From a virus (lineage: Duplodnaviria; Caudoviricetes): DNA of 27,754 nt. The position numbers and the translations under genes were made by a program. The notes beneath the pieces were generated by a model, which was not told the origin of the DNA, made no database searches, and worked only from the letters and a program-made list of their open reading frames with translations. This document shows positions 13,483 to 25,334 of the stretch, piece after piece. The stretch spans positions 1 to 27,754 of IMG/VR virus record IMGVR_UViG_3300020168_000026; one strand, written 5' to 3'. Within the stretch, counting starts at the first letter, position 1. Each line of letters starts with the position of its first letter.

Positions 13483-13725
13483 ATGAGGACGAAGATCGAT
13501 CGGGGTTGGTATGAGGTGCGGGGCTCCCACGTCGTGGCGACCTTCCACTATGGCGGGGATCGGTGCCGAGACTGGATCGTGACCCAGGACGCGGAGCAAG
13601 CCAGGGCGATCCACCATGCCGCCCAGCACGCGGATCCGCTGGATCCCCGCTACCGGGTCCACCTCTGCGACGTGGACGGGGTCTTTAGCAGGCTCTCCGA
13701 CGCCACCGCGGCCATCCTGAGATGA
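13483..13725 (+). CDS. small cassette protein (80 aa)
   Basis: SD AGGAGGAG; stop overlaps the terL start. Confidence 0.75.
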   Translation: MRTKIDRGWYEVRGSHVVATFHYGGDRCRDWIVTQDAEQARAIHHAAQHADPLDPRYRVHLCDVDGVFSRLSDATAAILR

Positions 13726-15530
13726 GCGCGACACTAGACCGGATCCGAGCCCAGCGCGCGATCCTCGCGGCCCGAGAGGGCGACGGGGAGACCGCGCGGG
13801 CTCATGCGGCGGGGCTCTCTGGGGAGCCTCGGAGGCTCGTGGAGGAGGCCCTGGAGATGGAGGAGGCCCTGGGGAGCCTGTTCGGGTTCCTGCTGTATGT
13901 GTGGCCGGTCCTCCACGGCGCGCGGCCATTCCTCCCGGCTCCCTACGTGCGCGTGATGTGTGACTGGATCGAGGAGCGGATCACATACCGCCGCCCCAAC
14001 GGCTACCTCGCGGTCCCTCCCGGGTCCATGAAGTCCGTCGTGGGCTCGGTCCTCTCCGCGCCCTTCCGGTGGCTCCACGATCCGACGTGGACGTGCATCT
14101 GGCTCAGTGGCTCGGATCGGGTGGTCTCCCGGGACTCAGGCCGCGCCCGGTACATCATCCGCTCGGAGCGATACCAGCGGCTCCTCCGGTATCAGGTCCG
14201 AAGGCTCCGAGAGCTTGACCAGTGGAGGGGCGGACCCTGGGACGAGGTCCTCCAGGCGGGGGATCAGCCGTGGGCCTTCCGCGATGACAAGAATGAGCGC
14301 CTCTGGTTCGAGTTAAACAGCGGCGGGGGCCGTCAGTGCCTCAGCACCCGGAGCACCCAGATCACCGGCCTCCGTGGCGGGATGTGGGGCGTAGACGATG
14401 CCCTGGACGCCTCGGAGGTGATCCGCGGCTCGGAGGATCAGACCGCCCGCCGACTGCTAGAGGTGCGGAGCGTGATCGCGGGCCAGCTATGGAACCGGAT
14501 CGATGACCAGCGGGACGGGCATCACGCCCGCATGGTGATCGGCCAGAGGCTCCACGATCTGGACGTGGGAGGGTGGCTGATCCGCATGGGCTGGGATCAC
14601 CTCTGCCTCCCCGCCGAGTATGACCCCGAGCACCCCCACGCCTCGCCGTCAGATCCGCGATCTGAGCCCGGGGAGTTACTCCACCCGGTCCTCCTATCGT
14701 CTGAGATCCTAAACCGCCAGAGAGAGGTGATGGGGCCGTCACAGTACGCCGCCCAATACCGGCAGGACCCCCAGAAGGAGGGCGGGAACGAACTAGCGGA
14801 GGCCCTGGACGCTTGTCCCCGATTCTTCGAGCACCCGGCCACGATCACGATGGATCAGAGGTGGGCCAGCATTGACGCCACGTTCGGGACCACCAAGGCC
14901 ACCTCCTCCCGCGTGGCGATCGAGGCTATGGGACGCCAGGGCGCGATCCTGTACCTGTACGACCTCGACGCGGACGTGATGACGTGGCACGAGATGCGCC
15001 AGCGGTGTCTCGACTTCGCGCGGGCTCAGTCCCCGGGGCTGGACTCGTTCATCGTGGAGACCAAGGCCCTCGGCCCCGCCCTCGTGGAGGACCTTCAGAG
15101 GGTGATCCGAGGGGTGGAGGGGTTCTCCCCTGGGTCTCAGTCGAAGGAGAGCCGGATCGGCGTCCTCGCGGCCCGTATGCGCTCAGGGCAGGTCTACCTC
15201 CCGCACCCCGACGCCACATGGCTCCGCCGCGTCTCGGTGAGCTACTCGGAGATCGCCACCCTCCTCCCTATCGCCAGGGCGCGCGGGGACCGGTGGCCGG
15301 ATGCACTCGGGAAGGACTCGGGGCGCGTCTCCGTTCCGTGGGTCGTGATGTTCGAGGCTGAGTGCCGAGACGGGACCGGGCGGAACGACCTTCCCGACGC
15401 GGCGGCTCAGGGCGTGATCTGGGAGCAACGGAAGAGGCCGACCGAGCGGATCAAGCTGACGCCCGCGGCCCCGGAGATCGCGTCCCCGTGGTTTTCCGGG
15501 GATATGTGGGACGGATCTGGCGGGTTCTAA
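13722..15530 (+). CDS. terL: terminase large subunit
   Basis: Walker A-like YLAVPPGSMKS, ITGLRGG..VDD, VIGQRLHDLD, YAAQYRQDP; nuclease motifs SIDATF, IVETKALG, NDLPDA. Confidence 0.93.
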   Translation: MSATLDRIRAQRAILAAREGDGETARAHAAGLSGEPRRLVEEALEMEEALGSLFGFLLYVWPVLHGARPFLPAPYVRVMCDWIEERITYRRPNGYLAVPPGSMKSVVGSVLSAPFRWLHDPTWTCIWLSGSDRVVSRDSGRARYIIRSERYQRLLRYQVRRLRELDQWRGGPWDEVLQAGDQPWAFRDDKNERLWFELNSGGGRQCLSTRSTQITGLRGGMWGVDDALDASEVIRGSEDQTARRLLEVRSVIAGQLWNRIDDQRDGHHARMVIGQRLHDLDVGGWLIRMGWDHLCLPAEYDPEHPHASPSDPRSEPGELLHPVLLSSEILNRQREVMGPSQYAAQYRQDPQKEGGNELAEALDACPRFFEHPATITMDQRWASIDATFGTTKATSSRVAIEAMGRQGAILYLYDLDADVMTWHEMRQRCLDFARAQSPGLDSFIVETKALGPALVEDLQRVIRGVEGFSPGSQSKESRIGVLAARMRSGQVYLPHPDATWLRRVSVSYSEIATLLPIARARGDRWPDALGKDSGRVSVPWVVMFEAECRDGTGRNDLPDAAAQGVIWEQRKRPTERIKLTPAAPEIASPWFSGDMWDGSGGF

Positions 15531-17189: not shown

Positions 17190-20100
17190 TTGACGGTTGC
17201 GCGATCTTATGCCCGCGCGTACTTTGCTCGCGTGGAAGACAACGGCTCACTCACTTGGACCCTGGCGGTTGACGCGGCGACGGTGGAACGCGCCAAGGCC
17301 ACGGGTCAGCCCCAGATCACCGTCCCGCGCGAGATCACCGCCCTGGCGACTCAGGCCCCAAGCGGGCTCCCTCGGAAGGACTACGCGCCCCCGAGCGTCT
17401 ACGTCTCCGGGGGTGAGGTCCAGCTAGAGCACAACGACCGGCTCGATCAGGATCAGTGGTTCGGGTTCGACGGGTACATCGGCTTCCGGGACAAGATGGT
17501 CCGCGAGTGGCCGATCCTCCAGGCGGGGAAACTGGCCTGGAGCCTCTCCACGCTCTCGCGCCAGTGGCGGATCGATCCCCCGAAGGGCGGCGATTCCCGC
17601 GACCTGATGATCGCGGAGTTCGCCCGCACGGTGATCGATGACCACTACGCGGGCGGCGGCGGCGGGATGATGGGCCTCCTGAGCCAGTTCGCCACGCTCC
17701 CGACGGATGGCTTCGTCCTGGGCCAGCCATACTATCCGGTCGATCCCACGATCACGGTCCGCGATGACTCCGGGGCCGTGGTCCTACAGGGCGCACACAC
17801 GCTCCAGATCGCTCCGATCCCCGCGTGGAACGTCCAGTATTGGCTCCCCGAGCCGGGGCCGCACAATCGGACCGTGTGGGGCGTGGAGGTGTACAACGTC
17901 GGAGGGGACGAGGAGATCGCCAAGGCGACCCGCGCCCGCAACTACGACAACGTGCGATTTAGGGCGGATCAGCTAGTCCACGCGCGCTTTATGCCCCAGG
18001 GGAACGACCCCGCGCCCTATGGCCTCCTCCGGCCCAACTGGAGCCTCTGGGAACAGTGGCGCACCCTGAGCAAGCTCCAGATCAACGGGTGGCAGAAGGC
18101 GGCATTCGGGATCCCACAGATCGAGACGACGGCGGAGGCGAACCCCGGCGATATCGCCACGGTGAATCAGATCGTCTCCAACCTCCGCGCGGGGGCTCTG
18201 GCGAGGTACTCCCTCCCGCCCGGGTTCCGGGTCACCTACCGGGAGGTGCCGTTCAGAGCGGGCGACCTCGACAAGACCAAGCAGCAACTCAAGATGGACG
18301 CCCTCGCCGGGATGTTCGCTCAGCATGTGGCGACCGGCTCCGCCAACGGGACCCAGGCCCTCCACGGGAGCCAGAAGCAGGAGTTCCACGCCCTGGCCGA
18401 GTATGTGGCGCGGACCATCGTCTCCACCCTGACGCGCGGCCCCGTCTCCACGGCCCCCTTGAAGCGTCTGGTCTCGCTCAATTTCCGGGACGTGGAATCC
18501 TATCCGGTCCTGTCCTTCGGCCCCATGCCGGTCTCGGACCCGTCCGAGTTCGTGGCCGCGATCACGAAGGCATCCGACGCGGGCGCGTTGACTCTGGACG
18601 GCGGGATCGAGGCCACGATCCGCGATGCGCTGAACCTGCCTGAGATGCCGATGGAGACCTCGGCCCAGTGGAAGGCGCGACTCCAGAACGAGGCCCCGCC
18701 GAACATCACGCCGACCCAGGCGGACACGGGCGAGGAGGACGAGCCAGACGGACCGGACGAGCCCCCGGAAGGTCCGCCCGATGGGGACGGCGGCGGAGTC
18801 ACTGACTCGGGCGGCGAGGAGGCCGACGAGGCGGAGGATCAGTCCGAGGTCCGAGCGGCGGCGGAAGACCCCGCGAAGACTCCCGCCCTCCCTGAGGAGC
18901 GGGTCCGCGGCTCGAAGAAGAACCCCGAGGGATCCGCCAGTGGAAAGCGAGGCGGGATCGAGGTCTCGCCCGCGGTGGAGGAGGCCCTACGCGCCAAGGT
19001 CGAGGACCACAACGATGGCCGCACCTCGAAGGCTCGACGGGTGGACCTGGGCGCTCTGAAGGCTGTGTATCGACGCGGGGCGGGTGCCTTCTCCGTCTCC
19101 CACCGTCCAGGGATGACCCGGAACCAGTGGGCAATGGGGCGCGTCAACGGGTTCCTCCGCCGCGTGGCTGGCACCGGAGGCCACCCCCAGGACGATGATC
19201 TGCTCCCAGAGGGCCACCCGAACAAGCCACAGGCCGCGGCGGATCTGCTCCCCGAGTCCCGCGTGATGGGGGATCGGATCGTGGCCGGTCCCGGTGGTCG
19301 CGCGGTCCGTCCGATCGAGACGGTGATCCGCCTCTCGGAGACCCTCGCGGTCACGAACGCCGGGAAGGACGAGGTGACGAAGGTCCTCGTGGACTGGCGG
19401 ATGGAGACCGCGAAGGAGTACGGGGACAGGCTGGAGAAGGACGCCGAGACCCTCGGGGACGTGGCGGACATCCCGGTCCCGAACGAGCGCGAGCTAGAGC
19501 GGAACCTGATCACCGCCCTCCGCCGTGTGTACCGCTCGGGGCGGCTCTCCGTCGAGAGCGAGATGGATCGCCTGGAGGATGACCCGTCCTTGGCGGCGGA
19601 CCTCGCAACCGGTGAGGCCAAGGTGGGCTCCCCGGGGATTCCAGCGCCGGAGAGGACCCTGGTGGCCTCCGCGGAGTCAGACACACACATTCCCCCGGAA
19701 TCGGTGCGAAAGGCCGCGAGAGACGCTCTCAGCGCCCGCAAGGACGCACACCCAAGCGAGCGAGGGATGACCGCGGTGGGTCTGGCCCGTGCTCGGGACC
19801 TCGCGAACGGACGCCCGGTCACGATCGCCACGATGCGTCGGATGAGGTCCTACTTCGCCCGCCATGAGGTGGACAAAGAGGGCGCGACTTGGGACGAGAA
19901 GGGCAAGGGCTGGCAAGCGTGGCAGGGCTGGGGCGGCGACCCTGGCCGCGAGTGGGTGGAGCGGATCTTGGAGCGCGAGGACGCCCGCGCGATGGCTGAG
20001 CACGCCGCTTGCCCCGCGGCGACTCAGAGCGTCCAGATCAACACCCGGAACCGGGACGCGACGGTCCGCCAGTTCGGCTATGGGCCGCTCAATGTGGACC

Positions 20101-21014
20101 GCCCTGGGGACTTCTGGGAGGAGATCGCGGAGGCGTGGGACACGTCCGAGGAGGCGGCGCGGGAGAGCCTCTGCGGGAACTGTGTCGCCTTCGATGTGTC
20201 CCCCAGGATGGAGGCATGTATGCCGGGGCCGGTGTCCGACGAGGACGGGCGGCTCGGGTACTGCCACATGCACCACTTCAAATGCCACAGCGCGCGGACG
20301 TGCCGAACGTGGGCGAAGGGCGGACCCATCACCGAGGACGAGGTCTCCCTGGAGTGGCAGGAGCGGTCCTCGGGGGCTGTGGCGTCCTCTGATCACGTCC
20401 ACGGCCCCGGCTGTGGGTGCGGGTCTTCCGGGGCGCTCCTCGACTCTCGGAGGCTCGTGGAGCGGATCCGCGCGATGGCGGATCAGCCCAAGGCCGGAGG
20501 GAGGCGGAAGGTCCGCGCGCCGAAGCCCGCCCCGGCCCAGCCTGAGAGCGAGGTGGACGAGATCGAGCCGAACGAGGCGATCGAGTCCGTGGCGCGGACG
20601 ACCGTGGCGGCGATGGTCGCGCGGCTCCGCAACCGAGCCCAGAGCGTCCTCCAGAACGCCGGGATCGGCGGGGCTCTGCCCACCCTCGGGATCGGGGCTC
20701 TGGTGACGAGCGCGATCCGCGCCCTCTCTCCCGGCACGGAGGCCAATCAAGCGCAAGCGGATGTGAATACCACCTTCGGCCTGGGGCGAGCCCAGCAACA
20801 ACGGGCCGAGGGCGCGGACCGGTTCATCTTCAGCAACCTCTTGGAGAGCCAGACCTGCCAGTTCTGCGATCAGTTCGACGGGACCGTTTTCGGCCCCGAT
20901 GAACTGGACTTCTTCGCCACGCCCTTCCAGCTATGCGAGGGCGGGGACAAGTGCAACTGTCTGATCCTCGCGGTCCCGCCCGAGCAGGAAGAGTTCCGGC
21001 CCGACCTCGGGTGA
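17190..21014 (+). CDS. portal protein (Mu gp29/DUF935-like) fused to a MuF/SPP1 gp7-like head morphogenesis domain with inserted domains; start may be GTG 17232
   Basis: Portal motifs PYGLLRP..W, KAAFGIP, GTQAL, LKRLVSLNF, IRDALNLP; C-terminal TCQFCDQFDG...PFQLCEGGDKCNC typical of MuF; located after terL. Confidence 0.85.
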   Translation: MTVARSYARAYFARVEDNGSLTWTLAVDAATVERAKATGQPQITVPREITALATQAPSGLPRKDYAPPSVYVSGGEVQLEHNDRLDQDQWFGFDGYIGFRDKMVREWPILQAGKLAWSLSTLSRQWRIDPPKGGDSRDLMIAEFARTVIDDHYAGGGGGMMGLLSQFATLPTDGFVLGQPYYPVDPTITVRDDSGAVVLQGAHTLQIAPIPAWNVQYWLPEPGPHNRTVWGVEVYNVGGDEEIAKATRARNYDNVRFRADQLVHARFMPQGNDPAPYGLLRPNWSLWEQWRTLSKLQINGWQKAAFGIPQIETTAEANPGDIATVNQIVSNLRAGALARYSLPPGFRVTYREVPFRAGDLDKTKQQLKMDALAGMFAQHVATGSANGTQALHGSQKQEFHALAEYVARTIVSTLTRGPVSTAPLKRLVSLNFRDVESYPVLSFGPMPVSDPSEFVAAITKASDAGALTLDGGIEATIRDALNLPEMPMETSAQWKARLQNEAPPNITPTQADTGEEDEPDGPDEPPEGPPDGDGGGVTDSGGEEADEAEDQSEVRAAAEDPAKTPALPEERVRGSKKNPEGSASGKRGGIEVSPAVEEALRAKVEDHNDGRTSKARRVDLGALKAVYRRGAGAFSVSHRPGMTRNQWAMGRVNGFLRRVAGTGGHPQDDDLLPEGHPNKPQAAADLLPESRVMGDRIVAGPGGRAVRPIETVIRLSETLAVTNAGKDEVTKVLVDWRMETAKEYGDRLEKDAETLGDVADIPVPNERELERNLITALRRVYRSGRLSVESEMDRLEDDPSLAADLATGEAKVGSPGIPAPERTLVASAESDTHIPPESVRKAARDALSARKDAHPSERGMTAVGLARARDLANGRPVTIATMRRMRSYFARHEVDKEGATWDEKGKGWQAWQGWGGDPGREWVERILEREDARAMAEHAACPAATQSVQINTRNRDATVRQFGYGPLNVDRPGDFWEEIAEAWDTSEEAARESLCGNCVAFDVSPRMEACMPGPVSDEDGRLGYCHMHHFKCHSARTCRTWAKGGPITEDEVSLEWQERSSGAVASSDHVHGPGCGCGSSGALLDSRRLVERIRAMADQPKAGGRRKVRAPKPAPAQPESEVDEIEPNEAIESVARTTVAAMVARLRNRAQSVLQNAGIGGALPTLGIGALVTSAIRALSPGTEANQAQADVNTTFGLGRAQQQRAEGADRFIFSNLLESQTCQFCDQFDGTVFGPDELDFFATPFQLCEGGDKCNCLILAVPPEQEEFRPDLG

Positions 21015-21029: not shown

Positions 21030-21470
21030 GTGTTCACGTCCCACCGCTTTCCGCGGCCCTTCTGGTACCCCACGATCTCCTTCTTCCAGTCCCCGGTGAC
21101 GAAGGACGTGGCCCTAGCTCCGACTCCAGGGACCCTGACGGCGACGGCGGCGGCTGAGTATGGGCGGGTAGGCACCTCGGAGGCGCGGCACATCGCCTAC
21201 GCCCACCTCCACCACGAGGTGGACGGCTCCTCGGGCTCCACCACTATGGAGATGTACCGGAGGCGGGGCGCGGTGGTGACTCTGATCGCGAACGTGACCT
21301 TGGCCGCGGGCTCGGGGGACTTCACGACCGTGGCGTGGACCTTCACCTCCCCCGCGGTCCAGTACCTCCAGGCGGGGGATTACCTCCACGTCCAGGCCAC
21401 GAGCAAGATGGGCGGGAGCCCCGTGGCGTTCATCGACGTGCATTGGGACGCCTTTGAGGGGCTCGGATAG
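21030..21470 (+). CDS. putative beta-rich virion protein (146 aa)
   Basis: Thr/Ala/Gly-rich with LQAGDYLHVQ; follows the portal gene. Confidence 0.6.
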   Translation: MFTSHRFPRPFWYPTISFFQSPVTKDVALAPTPGTLTATAAAEYGRVGTSEARHIAYAHLHHEVDGSSGSTTMEMYRRRGAVVTLIANVTLAAGSGDFTTVAWTFTSPAVQYLQAGDYLHVQATSKMGGSPVAFIDVHWDAFEGLG

Positions 21471-21652
21471 TGGCGCGACCCCCACGGACCACACTCCCAG
21501 ACGGGATCGGCAAGGAGGCGGATCGGGTGGTCGCACTCCGCGAGGGATTGACCGCGGACGCGGTGCGGAAGATGCGCCAGAAAGCGCAGATCCCCTCGGC
21601 CCACGGATGGGGAGGGGATCGGCGCTCGAAGGACTGGCGGGAGAAGGGCTAG
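21470..21652 (+). CDS. small basic DNA-binding-like protein (60 aa)
   Basis: DRVVALREGLTADAVRKMRQKAQIP is HTH-like; GGDRRSK tail; start overlaps the upstream stop. Confidence 0.55.
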   Translation: MARPPRTTLPDGIGKEADRVVALREGLTADAVRKMRQKAQIPSAHGWGGDRRSKDWREKG

Positions 21653-21831
21653 ACGTACCGGCGACCGTGCGAGTCTCGAATGGAGACGGACTCGACGTGA
21701 AGGTTCATGAACTTGAACCCGGACTTCCGATGCCAAGCCACATAGGCGGCGCTCTCCTCGGCCTCTGATTCTGACGGGTACTCCCCCACGAGCACCCAAG
21801 ACCTTCCGGTAAAGAACTCGACACAGAACAT
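21649..21831 (-). CDS. small cassette protein (60 aa)
   Basis: ATG 21831 after the P9 SD; MFCVEFFTGRSWVLVGEYPSESEAEE... Confidence 0.75.
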   Translation of the reverse strand: MFCVEFFTGRSWVLVGEYPSESEAEESAAYVAWHRKSGFKFMNLHVESVSIRDSHGRRYV

Positions 21832-21931
21832 CACTCTCTCCTCCCGCGGCGCTTCGTGCCCCGCTAGTGAGTTAGTTATAGAAACCAGCCAGACCGGACG
21901 CAAGCGGAAAACGGAAGAAAGTTGGAAAAAG
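21832..21931 (-). promoter_or_regulatory. promoter cassette P9
   Basis: Minus strand TTGCGT (21903-21898) - 17 bp - TATAAC (21880-21875); hairpin with ACGAA loop; SD GGAGGAGAGAG. Confidence 0.85.
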
Positions 21932-21944
21932 AGCCCCAAGCACG

Positions 21945-21967
21945 AAACCCCGCACGGGGCGGGGCTT
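21945..21967 (-). terminator. terminator-family hairpin
   Basis: Minus strand AAGCCCCGC-CCCGT-GCGGGGTTT; same family as 12759 and 15950, with a short U-tract. Confidence 0.6.
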
Positions 21968-21986
21968 GTGTGCGGCCCGTGTGGGC

Positions 21987-22349
21987 TCAATCGACGTAGG
22001 ATAGCTGAGCGTCGCAAGCCCGTTTCCAAACCGCCGCCCGGTAAGCCGCGCGCTCGTCCCAATCGCCCCAATCGTCCTCTCCCGCAGCCTCGCAAGCCGC
22101 CTCCCAATCGTCCTCTCCCGCAGCCTTGCGAGCCGCCGCCAGTTCGCCGTCCAGCCAAGCCTCGGCGGCATCGCAGAGCGCCATCGCGGCCTCAACGTCA
22201 CCGCCGCGGGCTGCGGCCTTAACCTCATCCTCGACTCCCCACAAGGCGGCGCGGTTGAACTCGGCGGCGCTAGCGGCGAAACCGGCCTCGATAGCCTCGC
22301 CCTGGAGGTTGCGGTAGAGGCGGCGGAAGATGGTCAGGTCGTTGTTCAT
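21987..22349 (-). CDS. acidic Ala-rich cassette protein (120 aa) with internal 12-aa duplication
   Basis: ATG after P10; about 26 D/E versus 12 K/R; AAGEDDW twice (36-bp period, 22067-22137). Confidence 0.8.
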   Translation of the reverse strand: MNNDLTIFRRLYRNLQGEAIEAGFAASAAEFNRAALWGVEDEVKAAARGGDVEAAMALCDAAEAWLDGELAAARKAAGEDDWEAACEAAGEDDWGDWDERAAYRAAVWKRACDAQLSYVD

Positions 22350-22462
22350 GGTGTCTCTCCGGGCGGGTTGTTGTTGTTGTGTCCCGCTGACGATTTATTT
22401 ATAGAACGCCCCCACATTCAGCGCAAGCGGAAAAGCGAAGAAAGTTGGAAAAAGATCCGGGA
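22350..22462 (-). promoter_or_regulatory. promoter cassette P10
   Basis: Minus strand TTGCGC (22426-22421) - 17 bp - TATAAA (22403-22398); hairpin GCGGG-(ACA-rich loop)-CCCGC; SD GGAGAG. Confidence 0.85.
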
Positions 22463-22526
22463 GCGGGCCTCCGTCCCCGTTTTTTCCGTTTGAATCCGCA
22501 CCCGTTACGCTTGCAACCTTTCCGCG

Positions 22527-23981
22527 ATGCCGTTCCCGAATCAGCACGCCGCACGCCAGAGGGACCCCGAAGGCTTCATCCGGTTTCGGATGGGCAAGCT
22601 CCCAGGGGCTCCCGAGTGGCTCTCCGTCGTCTATGGGGTCCGCGCCGATGGCGGCTCCGAGATCCAGTCCGTCCGCGCTGACGCGGCGCGAGTGGGCGCG
22701 GAGGAGTTCAAGCAATGGCTTCGGGAGCATGGGATGGCTCACCGGATCGAGGAGGCCACTGGCGAGATGGGCGAGCATGAGGAGGAGGAGGCCCACATGG
22801 GCGACCACTCCGACAAGCCACACCAGATGGAGATGGCGTACCACCCCGAGATAGGGATGGCCAACCGGGCCGACTTCACCCAGCCCGAGTACCTCAAGGC
22901 CCCCCGGATGCTCGGGGAGGCGTATGAGCCCCACGCCGTGGCCCTCATGGACGGTCAGCGGGTAGAGGTCGAACTACTCCGCACGGGCGAGCACCGGCCC
23001 CGCATGATGGGCGGGAAGCCGCACTCCGGCCCCTCTGCCCTCATGGTCACCGAGGAGATGATCGACTCCCTGGTTCGGGGCTTCGCGGCTGCGAAGCAAG
23101 CGGATCACTATGTCGGCGGCTCGGTCCCCGTGGGCTATGAGCACGACGAGGTGAGCGCGATCCGGGACGGGAAGATCGACCCCGCGGACGTGAAGCGGCT
23201 GGCGGCGGTCTACCGCGAGGTGCGGAAGCGCATGAACGCGGACGGCTCAGCCTCGCTCATGGGCTCGTTCGAGTACACCGACGAGGGCCGAGGCAAGGTC
23301 CGCGCGGGAGAGTTCCGCGGGTTCTCGCTGGTCTTCGCCCCTCCGGGGATGGCGCTGGACTCGAAGGGACGCCCGATCGACGAGTACGTCCCGATCGGCG
23401 GAACCCTCACGAACCGCCCCTTCGTTCGCACAATGGACCCGATCGCGGCGTCCGAGATCAACCCAAAGGAGGTCCCTCAGATGGACATCAAGCACTTGCG
23501 CGGCCCGCTCGCGCTTTCGGAGAGTGCTACGGAGGCGGACGCTCTGGCCGCTCTCGTGGCCCTCAAGGAGCAGGCCGAGAAGGCCGTGGTCCTTGAGGAC
23601 GAGTTGAAGAACGTGACCGCGGAGCGTGATGCCGAGCGGGAGAAGGTCGCCGCCCTTGGCGAGCGTGACCGCACCCTGACGCTCCGGCAGGCTGTGGCCG
23701 ATGGCCGGATCGCCAAGGCCCAGGAAGACCGCTACTGGCGCGTCCTGACCGCCCTCGGCGAGGAGGAGGCCCACGCCCTCTTCCCCGTCCAGAACATCCC
23801 CACCCAGCCGGTGGCGGACGTGGTGGCGGCTCCCTCCGAGGGGACCGCGCCCAAGGGCGACGACTTCGACGCCACGATGGCCCTGGCGGAGAAGATCCAG
23901 AAAGAGCACGGGATCACCGAGGCGGAGGCATTCGTCCGCGCCTGGGACTCCCTGAGCAGCAACACCCAGGCGGAGGCGTAG
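22527..23981 (+). CDS. prohead protease/scaffold (Mu gpI-like) with extra N-terminal domain
   Basis: VELLRTG, VPVGYEH, FEYTDEGRGKVRAGEFRGFS, GGTLTNRPF; C-terminal coiled coil AVADGRIAKAQ. Confidence 0.85.
   Translation: MPFPNQHAARQRDPEGFIRFRMGKLPGAPEWLSVVYGVRADGGSEIQSVRADAARVGAEEFKQWLREHGMAHRIEEATGEMGEHEEEEAHMGDHSDKPHQMEMAYHPEIGMANRADFTQPEYLKAPRMLGEAYEPHAVALMDGQRVEVELLRTGEHRPRMMGGKPHSGPSALMVTEEMIDSLVRGFAAAKQADHYVGGSVPVGYEHDEVSAIRDGKIDPADVKRLAAVYREVRKRMNADGSASLMGSFEYTDEGRGKVRAGEFRGFSLVFAPPGMALDSKGRPIDEYVPIGGTLTNRPFVRTMDPIAASEINPKEVPQMDIKHLRGPLALSESATEADALAALVALKEQAEKAVVLEDELKNVTAERDAEREKVAALGERDRTLTLRQAVADGRIAKAQEDRYWRVLTALGEEEAHALFPVQNIPTQPVADVVAAPSEGTAPKGDDFDATMALAEKIQKEHGITEAEAFVRAWDSLSSNTQAEA
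23481..23981 (+). CDS. putative internally initiated scaffold protein
   Basis: SD AAGGAGGT at 23466-23473, then an in-frame ATG just after the protease domain. Confidence 0.65.
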   Translation: MDIKHLRGPLALSESATEADALAALVALKEQAEKAVVLEDELKNVTAERDAEREKVAALGERDRTLTLRQAVADGRIAKAQEDRYWRVLTALGEEEAHALFPVQNIPTQPVADVVAAPSEGTAPKGDDFDATMALAEKIQKEHGITEAEAFVRAWDSLSSNTQAEA

Positions 23982-24374: not shown

Positions 24375-25334
24375 ATGGCCAATCGTAGCGATTTCACACA
24401 GGATCGGTTCCTCCAGCGTTACGCGCGCATGCTCGCGCCGGAGGATGGGTCCTTCATTGCGTACAACAGCGCCGCGTGCCCCGTCATCGACGTGGACACG
24501 ATGAGCGGGAACTTCATCGACGTGGGTCTGGGCTTCGCCGCTGAGTCCCCGTTCGACGATATGGTCCTCGGCCCCGGCATGGACCGCCCCAACGTGATCC
24601 GCACGTCGATCACCGAGGTGGACGGGTGGAACCTTAACGAGCGCGCCCAAGGCGTCCTCGTGAACAAGACCTCCCAGAAGTTCGCGATGGGGAACGGTAA
24701 CGACCTCCGCCGCGCGCACACCGCCCGGCTGATGAAGTACACCTCCATCGTCCGCGAGCGTGTCCTCGCCAACCTCGTCTTCAACGCGACTACCTTCTCC
24801 GGCTTTACCGCCGCGGTGGGTACTCAGTGGGACGCGGCTGGCTCGGATCCGGTGGCGGACGCCCTGACGGCTCAGGACTCCGTCCTGACCAACGCCGGGG
24901 TCAAGCCCAACACCGCGATCATGGGATACGAGGTGTACAAGGCCCTGCGGACCAACGATCGGATCCTCGAACTGTGGAGCCGCACCTCGTCCAGCGGCGG
25001 GATCGTCCCCGACGACGCCCTGGCCGCGGCCCTCGACGTGGATCGGATCATCGTCGGCGCGGCGAGCAGCAACACCGCAGCGGAGGGGCTCACGGAGAGC
25101 AAGTCCTTCATCTGGGGCAAGTTCTGCCTGTTCGCCCACATCGTCCAGAGCCCGACCCCGTACACGCCCCAGTCCTGCATCCAGCGGTTCCGGTTCCGCG
25201 GCGCGGGTGACCCGGAGATCCGTCGCTACGACCTCCCCGGTTCGTACCAGGAGCAGATCGACGCGATTTACTGCGAGCAGTTCACGGTGCCGACCCCGGC
25301 CCTGGGCTACCTGTGGTCCTCGGTCGTCTCCTAA
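24375..25334 (+). CDS. major capsid protein (HK97 fold, lambda gpE/Mu gpT-like)
   Basis: QWDAAGSDPVAD, GVKPNTAIMG..VYKALRTN, LDVDRIIVG, FIWGK; size and synteny. Confidence 0.88.
   Translation: MANRSDFTQDRFLQRYARMLAPEDGSFIAYNSAACPVIDVDTMSGNFIDVGLGFAAESPFDDMVLGPGMDRPNVIRTSITEVDGWNLNERAQGVLVNKTSQKFAMGNGNDLRRAHTARLMKYTSIVRERVLANLVFNATTFSGFTAAVGTQWDAAGSDPVADALTAQDSVLTNAGVKPNTAIMGYEVYKALRTNDRILELWSRTSSSGGIVPDDALAAALDVDRIIVGAASSNTAAEGLTESKSFIWGKFCLFAHIVQSPTPYTPQSCIQRFRFRGAGDPEIRRYDLPGSYQEQIDAIYCEQFTVPTPALGYLWSSVVS

Follow-up and report, generated by a model that had tools for sequence, protein, structure and literature searches.

Candidate prohead-protease sites at the joints of a Mu-type portal-MuF polyprotein with inserted domain cassettes

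The window analyzed here is a stretch of 27,754 nucleotides from an uncultured virus contig (IMG/VR record IMGVR_UViG_3300020168_000026; Duplodnaviria, Caudoviricetes), and the subject of this work is a large polyprotein encoded at positions 17190-21014, which is known here from sequence alone. Judging by the profiles matched in order along one frame, this open reading frame (ORF) encodes a fusion between a Mu-type portal and a MuF-like protein and contains three inserted domains, hereinafter cassettes, in agreement with the sequence-only reading that preceded this analysis. The joints between the domains carry the short motif A-x-[A/S]-[E/D], and we tie this motif to the phage's own Mu-like prohead protease because a matching conserved site ends the protease domain of that enzyme. 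That the joints are cut by this protease, freeing the MuF unit and the inserted domains within the capsid, appears to us slightly on the probable side.

The elements of the polyprotein and of the protease gene are listed below; aa denotes amino acid positions, and pLDDT the predicted local distance difference test score of the structural models.

17190..21014, + strand: gene for the portal-MuF polyprotein; an open frame, with full-length homologues of 1243-1290 aa at 56-94% identity
17367..18704, + strand: Mu-type portal domain, aa ~60-505; Pfam Portal_Mu (PF06074) over aa 106-466, and phrog_113 (portal)
18705..18854, + strand: acidic Gly/Pro-rich linker, aa 506-555, recognized from its sequence; length and sequence vary among relatives; pLDDT <50
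18855..18866, + strand: site 1, AAAE, aa 556-559; candidate for cleaving the portal from the remainder
18867..19232, + strand: cassette 1, DUF5824-type, aa 560-681; PF19141 match
19233..19244, + strand: site 2, AAAD, aa 682-685; recognized from the motif and from the cassette ends in relatives
19254..19616, + strand: MuFN, conserved helical block, aa 689-809; present in every relative, pLDDT 74-94, predicted to pack on MuFC
19665..19676, + strand: site 3, ASAE, aa 826-829; in a low-confidence linker (aa 810-830, pLDDT <50)
19680..19988, + strand: cassette 2, small helical domain of the phrog_2859 type, aa 831-933; PHROG match and confident fold
19989..20000, + strand: site 4, AMAE, aa 934-937; closes the last helix of cassette 2
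20001..20381, + strand: cassette 3, Cys-rich domain with seven conserved Cys, aa 938-1064; recognized from homologues
20382..20393, + strand: site 5, ASSD, aa 1065-1068; recognized from the motif and column conservation
20472..20483, + strand: site 6, AMAD, aa 1095-1098; the weakest candidate, away from any cassette edge
20562..20984, + strand: MuFC, conserved block with a MuF-like core, aa 1125-1265; sub-threshold MuF profiles, pLDDT 72-92
22527..23981, + strand: gene for the Mu-like prohead protease-scaffold protein, 484 aa; PF10123 and phrog_328
23442..23456, + strand: IAASE, protease aa 306-310, directly after TLTNRPFVRTMDP; candidate self-cleavage site between protease and scaffold

The junction motif, the prohead protease and phage Mu

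The protease ORF consists of an extra N-terminal domain, the protease domain (aa ~140-305) and a scaffold-like C-terminus. It belongs to the Mu-like prohead proteases, with a PF10123 match of 54 bits against a cut-off of 25.2 and with conservation of His206 in 28 of 30 aligned rows and of Ser267 in all 30; by analogy, we take these two residues to be the catalytic pair. The IAASE site that directly follows the protease domain, as well as LALSE, AALGE and MALAE further along the same ORF, had been pointed out in the sequence-only reading, and all four are present. Among the 29 non-self rows, the protease-end site conforms to [VIL]-A-[AP]-[ST]-[ED] in 27, the exceptions being LSASE, in which the acid is kept, and LAATV; the final E/D is found in 28 of the 29, as is Ala at the second position.

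In the polyprotein, A-[ASM]-[AS]-[ED] occurs exactly six times, with the acidic residue at aa 559, 685, 829, 937, 1068 and 1098, exactly where the earlier reading had placed it. Shuffled versions of the polyprotein contain 0.71 copies on average and none of 5000 shuffles reaches six, and the C-terminal 774 aa alone hold six copies against 0.55 expected, figures that overstate the significance because the choice of motif was post hoc. Each of the six A-[ASM]-[AS] triplets of the polyprotein is followed by E or D (by Asp at three of the six sites), and the strict motif is found once in the 13 other translated ORFs of the window. Its density is 0.27 per 100 aa in linkers versus 0.08 in domains, a rough estimate from an early profile set with misaligned rows. 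A weight matrix built only from the protease-end sites of the relatives and scanned over 1270 positions of the polyprotein ranks four of the six sites 1st, 5th, 9th and 12th, site 5 being the 1st.

Conservation of the sites was assessed among homologues from a search of 5.8 billion proteins, which produced 426 matches at E<=0.001 among 8000 scored candidates; 19 rows of polyprotein relatives make up the alignment denoted A1, and 42 related viral loci were examined (individual relatives are given below by our own handles, such as L018 or P0017). The A1 columns of sites 1 and 2 were shifted by MAFFT, so window counts were used for these sites instead. Of 34 distinct relatives, 29 have [ALM][ASG][ED] within a 20-aa window at the portal junction, where chance would give about 0.18 per window, and the portal linkers typically end in PVAASE, PMAAAE, EALAE or EKLAE; at site 2, the homologous cassette ends in AAAD, AASE or EMSE/KMSE in 7 cassette-bearing rows. 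Among the rows that have a residue in the respective columns, E/D is found in 7 of 8 at site 3, in 14 of 15 at site 4 and in 4 of 4 at site 5. In minimal relatives, the site 4 column is the single MuFN-MuFC junction, [ML]-[SCH]-[ED]-H, and the sequence after MuFN in 27 of 38 relatives, the closer ones, is [RT]-[LMF]-[SCH]-[ED]-H.

One relative, L018, has no acidic residue at any of three sites, which read LAATV (the protease end), IALAAG and RLSGSG, and its 65%-identical sister L048 keeps the acid at all three (LAASE, LLAAE and RLSD). By this sequence comparison, the loss of the acid in L018 is linked across two genes.

The motif can be followed to phage Mu (L049). The Mu protease gpI contains LTALAAD (aa ~161-167) right after LTNDPGATGM, 12 residues upstream of the internal gpZ start, and the family profile aligns this peptide with the protease-end site of the family (E 4.4e-13); by BLASTP, the scaffold part alone of the window's protease is aligned with gpI, and the family profile is needed for the rest. 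The portal gpH of Mu contains AALSAE at aa 427-432 of 512, 80 residues from the C-terminus. According to the part of the 2025 cryogenic electron microscopy study of Mu at hand (PMC11915804), the last 124 residues of the portal, there gp29, are absent from the virion structure, and cleavage by protease I is blamed, with reference to Grimaud 1996; AALSAE falls within the part so reported absent. The exact cleavage site of the Mu portal was not found in the literature searched. Mu shares both the PF06074 portal and the PF10123 protease families with the phage in the window and likewise has Ala-rich, acid-ended motifs, one closing the protease domain and one within the absent portal tail, but differs in that its MuF protein, gp30, is encoded by a separate gene and the removed portal tail is without a recognized domain. 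By analogy, cutting at the joints of the polyprotein is supported by this report, in the part at hand, of portal-tail processing by a homologous protease.

Cassette slots and the split MuF unit

The portal domain of the polyprotein matches Portal_Mu over aa 106-466 with 26.3 bits against a cut-off of 23.9, and the profile is matched by all 19 aligned family members (best E 8.4e-16). The MuF-like part follows directly: MuFN and MuFC are fused to the portal in every copy across the 42 related loci. The MuF profiles remain sub-threshold, with PF04233 at 16.6 bits in the whole protein and 20.1 bits in the segment alone (cut-off 29.6, aa 1188-1239) and TIGR01641 at 17.2 bits (cut-off 39.65); PF04233 is found at E<0.05 in 14 of the 19 family members (best 1.9e-5), and the block profiles match Mu gpF only at E ~0.04. 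The split unit is called MuF-like solely on account of these sub-threshold matches in MuFC.

The three enclosed domains proposed in the earlier reading turned out to be discrete. Cassette 1 matches PF19141 (DUF5824) over aa 612-656 with 25.3 bits in the whole protein and 30.8 bits in the segment alone (cut-off 25). Cassette 2 matches phrog_2859, a family of unknown function, over aa 833-931 (E 1.2e-17), and its fold is confidently predicted over aa 831-934, with pLDDT 85-96 in the second model. The segment aa 938-1068, comprising cassette 3, has both stand-alone and embedded homologues; a Pfam search of this cassette at E<=10 yields nothing but a 9-bit match to DUF7140. Cassettes 1 and 2 were considered as possible paralogues, but the early profile signal proved to be an artefact of the misaligned rows P0017 and P0019, and the hhalign probability with a clean alignment is 0.2%.

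Four full-length homologues have the same layout as the polyprotein, and shorter homologues lack some or all of the inserted domains; 30 ORFs in the 42 loci consist of portal, MuFN and MuFC with no cassette. Cassette 1 is found at its slot in 5 of the 19 A1 rows and at a different slot in P0006 and P0007, and is absent elsewhere. Slot 1 is occupied by a phrog_2859 domain in P0019 and, in L012/P0017, by a 2H phosphoesterase (PF13563, E 1.2e-9, with a weak match to Acb1, E 0.0024) which is flanked by PVAAAE and VVAAAD. Because domains appear, vanish or change slot while portal-MuFN-MuFC stays in the 42 loci, the inserted domains behave, on the evidence of these alignments, as cassettes with two slots, one between the portal and MuFN and the other between MuFN and MuFC. 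Five of the six motif sites lie within a few residues of points where relatives in A1 gain, lose or relocate cassettes. The expectation that homologous portals would gain or lose domains at the motifs is thus borne out at five sites, and the claim that the motif stands at each domain boundary holds for these five, which are at cassette edges, but not for site 6, which is off any edge and has E/D in 5 of 16 rows. Slot 1 of L048 holds an extra insert of ~200 aa of unknown nature. In L019 (7794-11271), the portal-MuF gene is in two overlapping frames with the break between the DUF5824 and phrog_2859 cassettes, either a frameshift or an assembly error.

The AlphaFold models contain confident blocks at aa 689-809, 831-934 and 1125-1265, which agree with the cassette boundaries, a check that the sequence-only reading had proposed, and sites 1 and 3 fall in stretches of pLDDT <50 between confident blocks. 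Binding of MuFN (aa 689-812) to MuFC (aa 1120-1268) is predicted with a score of 0.86, versus 0.00 for the best of 3 controls; the predicted interface has ~200 contacts, with at least 92% of the contacts agreeing between runs and partner pLDDT of at least 86. The mark used for binding is reached by 116 of 157 solved complexes and by 2 of 215 mismatched pairs, counts that apply only roughly to the present prediction because it used our own alignment. Because MuFN and MuFC are predicted to pack together, cassettes 2 and 3 appear to split one unit formed by both, as had been suggested from the sequence.

Several observations weigh against cutting at these joints. The motif was defined post hoc, in a protein rich in Ala, Glu and Asp. 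The weight matrix ranks RAMAE 84th and RAMAD (site 6) 88th of 1270 positions and detects no global excess, with 88 positions at the score of the lowest site versus 83 in shuffles and 1 position at a score of at least 6 versus 2.1 in shuffles; the enrichment over the Ala-rich background that the earlier reading had proposed as a check stands for the strict motif (6 versus 0.71) and not for the matrix. Site 6 is poorly conserved, as noted above; 11 of 38 relatives, from a more distant subfamily, have no acid after MuFN (VLSQC, VLDGQ); and the linked loss in L018 comes from a single lineage. The same cassettes on lambda-family and PF06381 portals are mostly without the motif at their joints, a pattern that fits a protease-specific code and, equally, a lineage-specific linker. 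In the predicted structure, site 4 is at the end of a helix and not in a loose linker, and cuts at sites 3-5 would break the chain within what is predicted to be a single fold. Finally, the scissile bond is assumed: in herpesviruses, proteases related to this fold cleave the Ala-Ser bond, and AAS[ED] sites would allow such a cut as well.

The composition of the polyprotein and the matrix result would both suit a chain that is not cut at all and that holds MuF and the small domains, in twelve copies, against the inside of the portal; the motif would then be a structural linker, mark a helix end or serve as a recombination joint at which cassettes are more easily exchanged. We regard this as distinctly improbable, considering that the protease domain is immediately followed by the same motif in Mu gpI as well as in 28 of 29 relatives, that the acid is lost together at all three L018 sites, that a conserved putative active-site His/Ser pair is encoded in the protease gene near the polyprotein, and that the removal of the Mu portal tail is attributed to a homologous protease in the part of the Mu study at hand.

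A different possibility is that site 1 alone is cut, as in Mu, which would leave the MuF unit and the three cassettes as one internal protein of ~75 kDa, the other motif copies being linker remnants that were carried along with cassettes inserted at a pre-existing site. No site is better conserved in the family than site 1 (29 of 34), for which Mu offers a precedent; the single [ML]-[SCH]-[ED]-H of the minimal relatives can be aligned with each of sites 3, 4 and 5, a pattern that duplication upon insertion would produce; and both the predicted unity of MuFN and MuFC (0.86 versus 0.00 for the best control) and the helix-end position of site 4 point the same way. Nevertheless, E/D is kept at sites 3, 4 and 5 (7/8, 14/15 and 4/4 rows) more than a neutral remnant suggests, and L018 has lost the acid of the MuFN-MuFC junction together with those of the other two sites, so that we consider cutting at site 1 alone unlikely.

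Processed and composite head proteins of other phages

The prohead-protease cleavage motifs of phage T4 (gp21) and PhiKZ are of the same type as the candidate sites, with Glu at P1. For phage SPN3US, the part of PMC10052503 at hand describes gp245 as cleaving after A-X-E and preferring V or A at P4 as well as S at P1'; codes that end in Glu are established for the proteases of T4-type jumbo phages. The systems of T4 gp21, PhiKZ, 201phi2-1 and SPN3US gp245 resemble the present one in having a short motif in which Glu at P1 is preceded by Ala or a small residue, and in that the motif is common to the protease itself, the portal and the packaged proteins. The analogy with T4 gp21 drawn in the earlier reading is thus sound for the type of motif but does not extend to the enzyme: these proteases belong to another family by Pfam, whereas the one in the window is of the Mu-like family PF10123. 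Furthermore, the substrates in those systems are separate gene products with N-terminal propeptides and not cassettes in one portal-MuF chain, and Asp occupies three of the six candidate sites of the polyprotein.

Iyer et al. 2017 (PMC5512222), in the part of the article at hand, describe polyvalent proteins, multi-domain proteins that include portal- and MuF-anchored ones and fusions with 2H domains; assemblin-like peptidases are proposed to process these proteins, and the 2H phosphoesterase class is predicted to counter nucleotide-based defence. The polyprotein in the window is of this kind in that several unrelated domains are joined in one chain that is encoded in the head-gene block and anchored by a portal and a MuF-like part, and its relative P0017 has a 2H phosphoesterase in the same slot. 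It differs from the polyvalent proteins, as they appear in that part of the article, in that the three cassettes belong to no enzymatic or named Pfam family, DUF5824 being the sole Pfam match among them, and in that two of the cassettes are inside the MuF unit and not appended; a junction motif for a Mu-like protease does not figure in the part at hand. By Pfam, no conflict-type effector family was found in this polyprotein.

Portal-MuF fusions are also reported for Microbacterium phages of Clusters EA3/EA5/EA8 and EB by Jacobs-Sera et al. 2020 (PMC7302621, in part). There, too, the portal and a minor capsid protein resembling MuF form one gene, but neither inserted cassettes nor a junction motif is described in the part of that paper at hand, and Cluster EA is without a maturation protease gene. 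Portal- or MuF-anchored polyvalent proteins, A-X-E protease codes and portal-MuF fusions have thus already been published; new here are a candidate Mu-like protease code that reaches Mu, the nesting of cassettes in the MuF unit, the linked disappearance of the acid in L018, and how widely the cassettes are distributed.

In the reading favored here, that of cutting at several joints, the chain would enter the prohead in twelve copies together with the portal ring. Packaged along with its scaffold part, the protease would cut after the acidic residue, the bond being assumed from T4-type proteases; the first cut would fall at site 1, separating the portal from the rest, and those at sites 2-5, the cassette edges, would follow. 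After cutting, the two MuF halves could be held together by their large predicted interface, and the freed small domains would stay in the head with the DNA; their exit with the DNA and action in the host are speculative. As a broader and tentative proposal, possible rather than probable in our estimate, A-A-[S/A]-[E/D] might be a family-wide code of Mu-like proteases, Mu included, and the portal-MuF slots might serve to load domains, the Cys-rich domain among these passengers, in twelvefold copy to be cut free in the head.

If the joints are cut, they provide a readable rule for the proteins that Mu-like phages pack and release in their heads, applicable to Mu itself; the portal-MuF gene becomes a natural loading dock for passenger domains; and two very common phage domains, one of them Cys-rich, become probable components of the capsid interior. 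If the joints are not cut, the finding shrinks to another member of the known portal/MuF fusion proteins.

Nature of the cassettes and genomic context

A HMMER scan with aa 826-1068, that is, cassettes 2 and 3, over 1.84 billion representatives detected homologues in 4162 clusters at E<=0.001, a number that falls to 1893 at 1e-10 and to 203 at 1e-30. These proteins range from 94 to 2100 aa, the domains are found at any position in them, and the Cys-rich domain is 60-70% identical. Of the 150 homologues listed, 56 were picked from those of at least 394 aa and scanned with Pfam. No family was found in 23 of the 56, and the remaining matches are as follows.

DUF5824: 13 of 56 scanned homologues
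Zeta-toxin-like kinase: 6 of 56
DUF5754: 5 of 56
Cytidylyltransferase-like: 4 of 56
Guanylate kinase: 3 of 56
YbjQ: 3 of 56
Lambda portal, Mu portal, XkdF-type protease, Gp23, ferritin-like, HAD phosphatase and Hva1 TUDOR: 1 of 56 each

Lambda-family portals of a large group also end in the trio of cassettes (the estimate for IMG/VR is 1600 stretches), and PF06381 portals have two of the three cassette domains after MuF. Among predicted viral structures, the phrog_2859 domain turns up under the names prohead protease/XkdF, portal, ParB, HAD and Dps, and in cultured phages the cassette domains are located beside portal or MuF genes.

The designation of the three domains as effectors in the earlier reading found no support. 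No enzymatic, anti-defence or known-fold assignment was found for the cassettes in Pfam or in fold searches against the PDB, which are uninformative for cassettes 1 and 3 given their low-confidence models (pLDDT 26-60 for cassette 3). Specifically, Foldseek returned nothing from the PDB at E<=0.001 with either model, VIA-align only generic helical bundles (best Z 7.3 for model 1, with a root-mean-square deviation of 6.4 over 168 aligned residues, and Z 4.3 for model 2), and sequence and profile searches of the PDB nothing relevant. The literature search revealed no paper mentioning DUF5824. Seven of 28 phage records for relatives of cassette 3 bear the depositor label 'high potential iron-sulfur protein'; this family is absent from the Pfam matches of cassette 3 at E<=10, which, with a fold predicted at low confidence, neither confirms nor excludes the label. 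Cassette 3 is probably a metal-binding Cys-rich domain, and because it is 60-70% identical across very many phage proteins, it looks, from these comparisons, more like a conserved housekeeping module of the head than an arms-race effector.

Whatever is cut, the cassettes might be conserved modules of head assembly or DNA handling, for example for anchoring in the capsid interior, binding of DNA ends or metal binding, that are hung on any head protein and are not directed at the host. The breadth of the distribution of cassettes 2 and 3 (4162 representative clusters, in proteins of very different lengths) and the strong conservation of the Cys-rich domain argue for this view. So does the variety of chains that carry the cassettes: portals of the Mu, lambda and PF06381 types, proteins that bear the name prohead protease/XkdF, and chains that also contain kinase, cytidylyltransferase, HAD or ferritin-like domains. 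The outcome of the family and fold searches points the same way. Conversely, slot 1 of P0017 holds a 2H phosphoesterase with a weak Acb1 match, of a class predicted to be anti-defence in the part of PMC5512222 at hand, and the partners of the cassettes elsewhere are typical of polyvalent conflict proteins. On balance, we place the absence of a host-directed role just on the doubtful side of even; the cassettes are described here as common head-associated modules, for which 'effector' is a guess.

Several long lambda-family portals (P0023, P0038, P0075, P0078, P0100 and P0110) have a Cys-Gly-rich peptide, ..DCGTGAGGF.EGN.C.., before the added modules, sometimes twice, which may be another module tag. 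Phages with a lambda-type portal and the trio share the decoration and capsid PHROGs of the window (phrog_673 and phrog_1005); the 359-aa protein at the position of the protease in these lambda-type phages (L067, 8036-9115) matched no PHROG and no Mu-like protease profile.

The stop-free translation of ORF 17190-21014 on the + strand, counted from the TTG at 17190, is 1274 aa long. The true start is likely the GTG at 17232 (residue 15) because both the closest homologue and the Atlas record begin there. The same phage is carried, at 100% identity, by a 44-kb contig (L002); among cultured phages, megablast found no match, and tblastn matches cover at most 20% of the polyprotein. The portal occupies its usual position in the head-gene block, between the large terminase gene (TerL, 13722-15530) upstream and the genes for the protease and the capsid protein (24375-25334); the order downstream of the polyprotein is Mu-like protease-scaffold, decoration or scaffold-like protein, major capsid protein and neck protein. 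About 1.5 kb (21030-22527) separates the polyprotein from the protease gene, and the small ORFs in this stretch have no family match and no homologue among the related loci. No such gap is present in the more distant relatives, whose protease gene directly follows the portal-MuF gene.

The first ~90 residues of the protease ORF (22527-22800) form a small N-terminal domain of its own (MPFPN.HAARQ...). Because, in a comparison that includes L017, L019, L026 and L034-L037, other relatives carry a different N-terminal domain (...LPDSAFLYI...HLRNAI...) or none, the protease gene likewise has a variable cassette slot; a conserved L-[AS]-[DE]-G comes after this slot, immediately ahead of the protease domain. 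Within the same ORF, the segment at aa ~110-122 (22854-22892), MANRADFTQPEYL, resembles the N-terminus of the capsid protein, aa 1-13 (24375-24413), MANRSDFTQDRFL, at 9 of 13 positions, a resemblance that is seen, among the aligned relatives, in this phage only.

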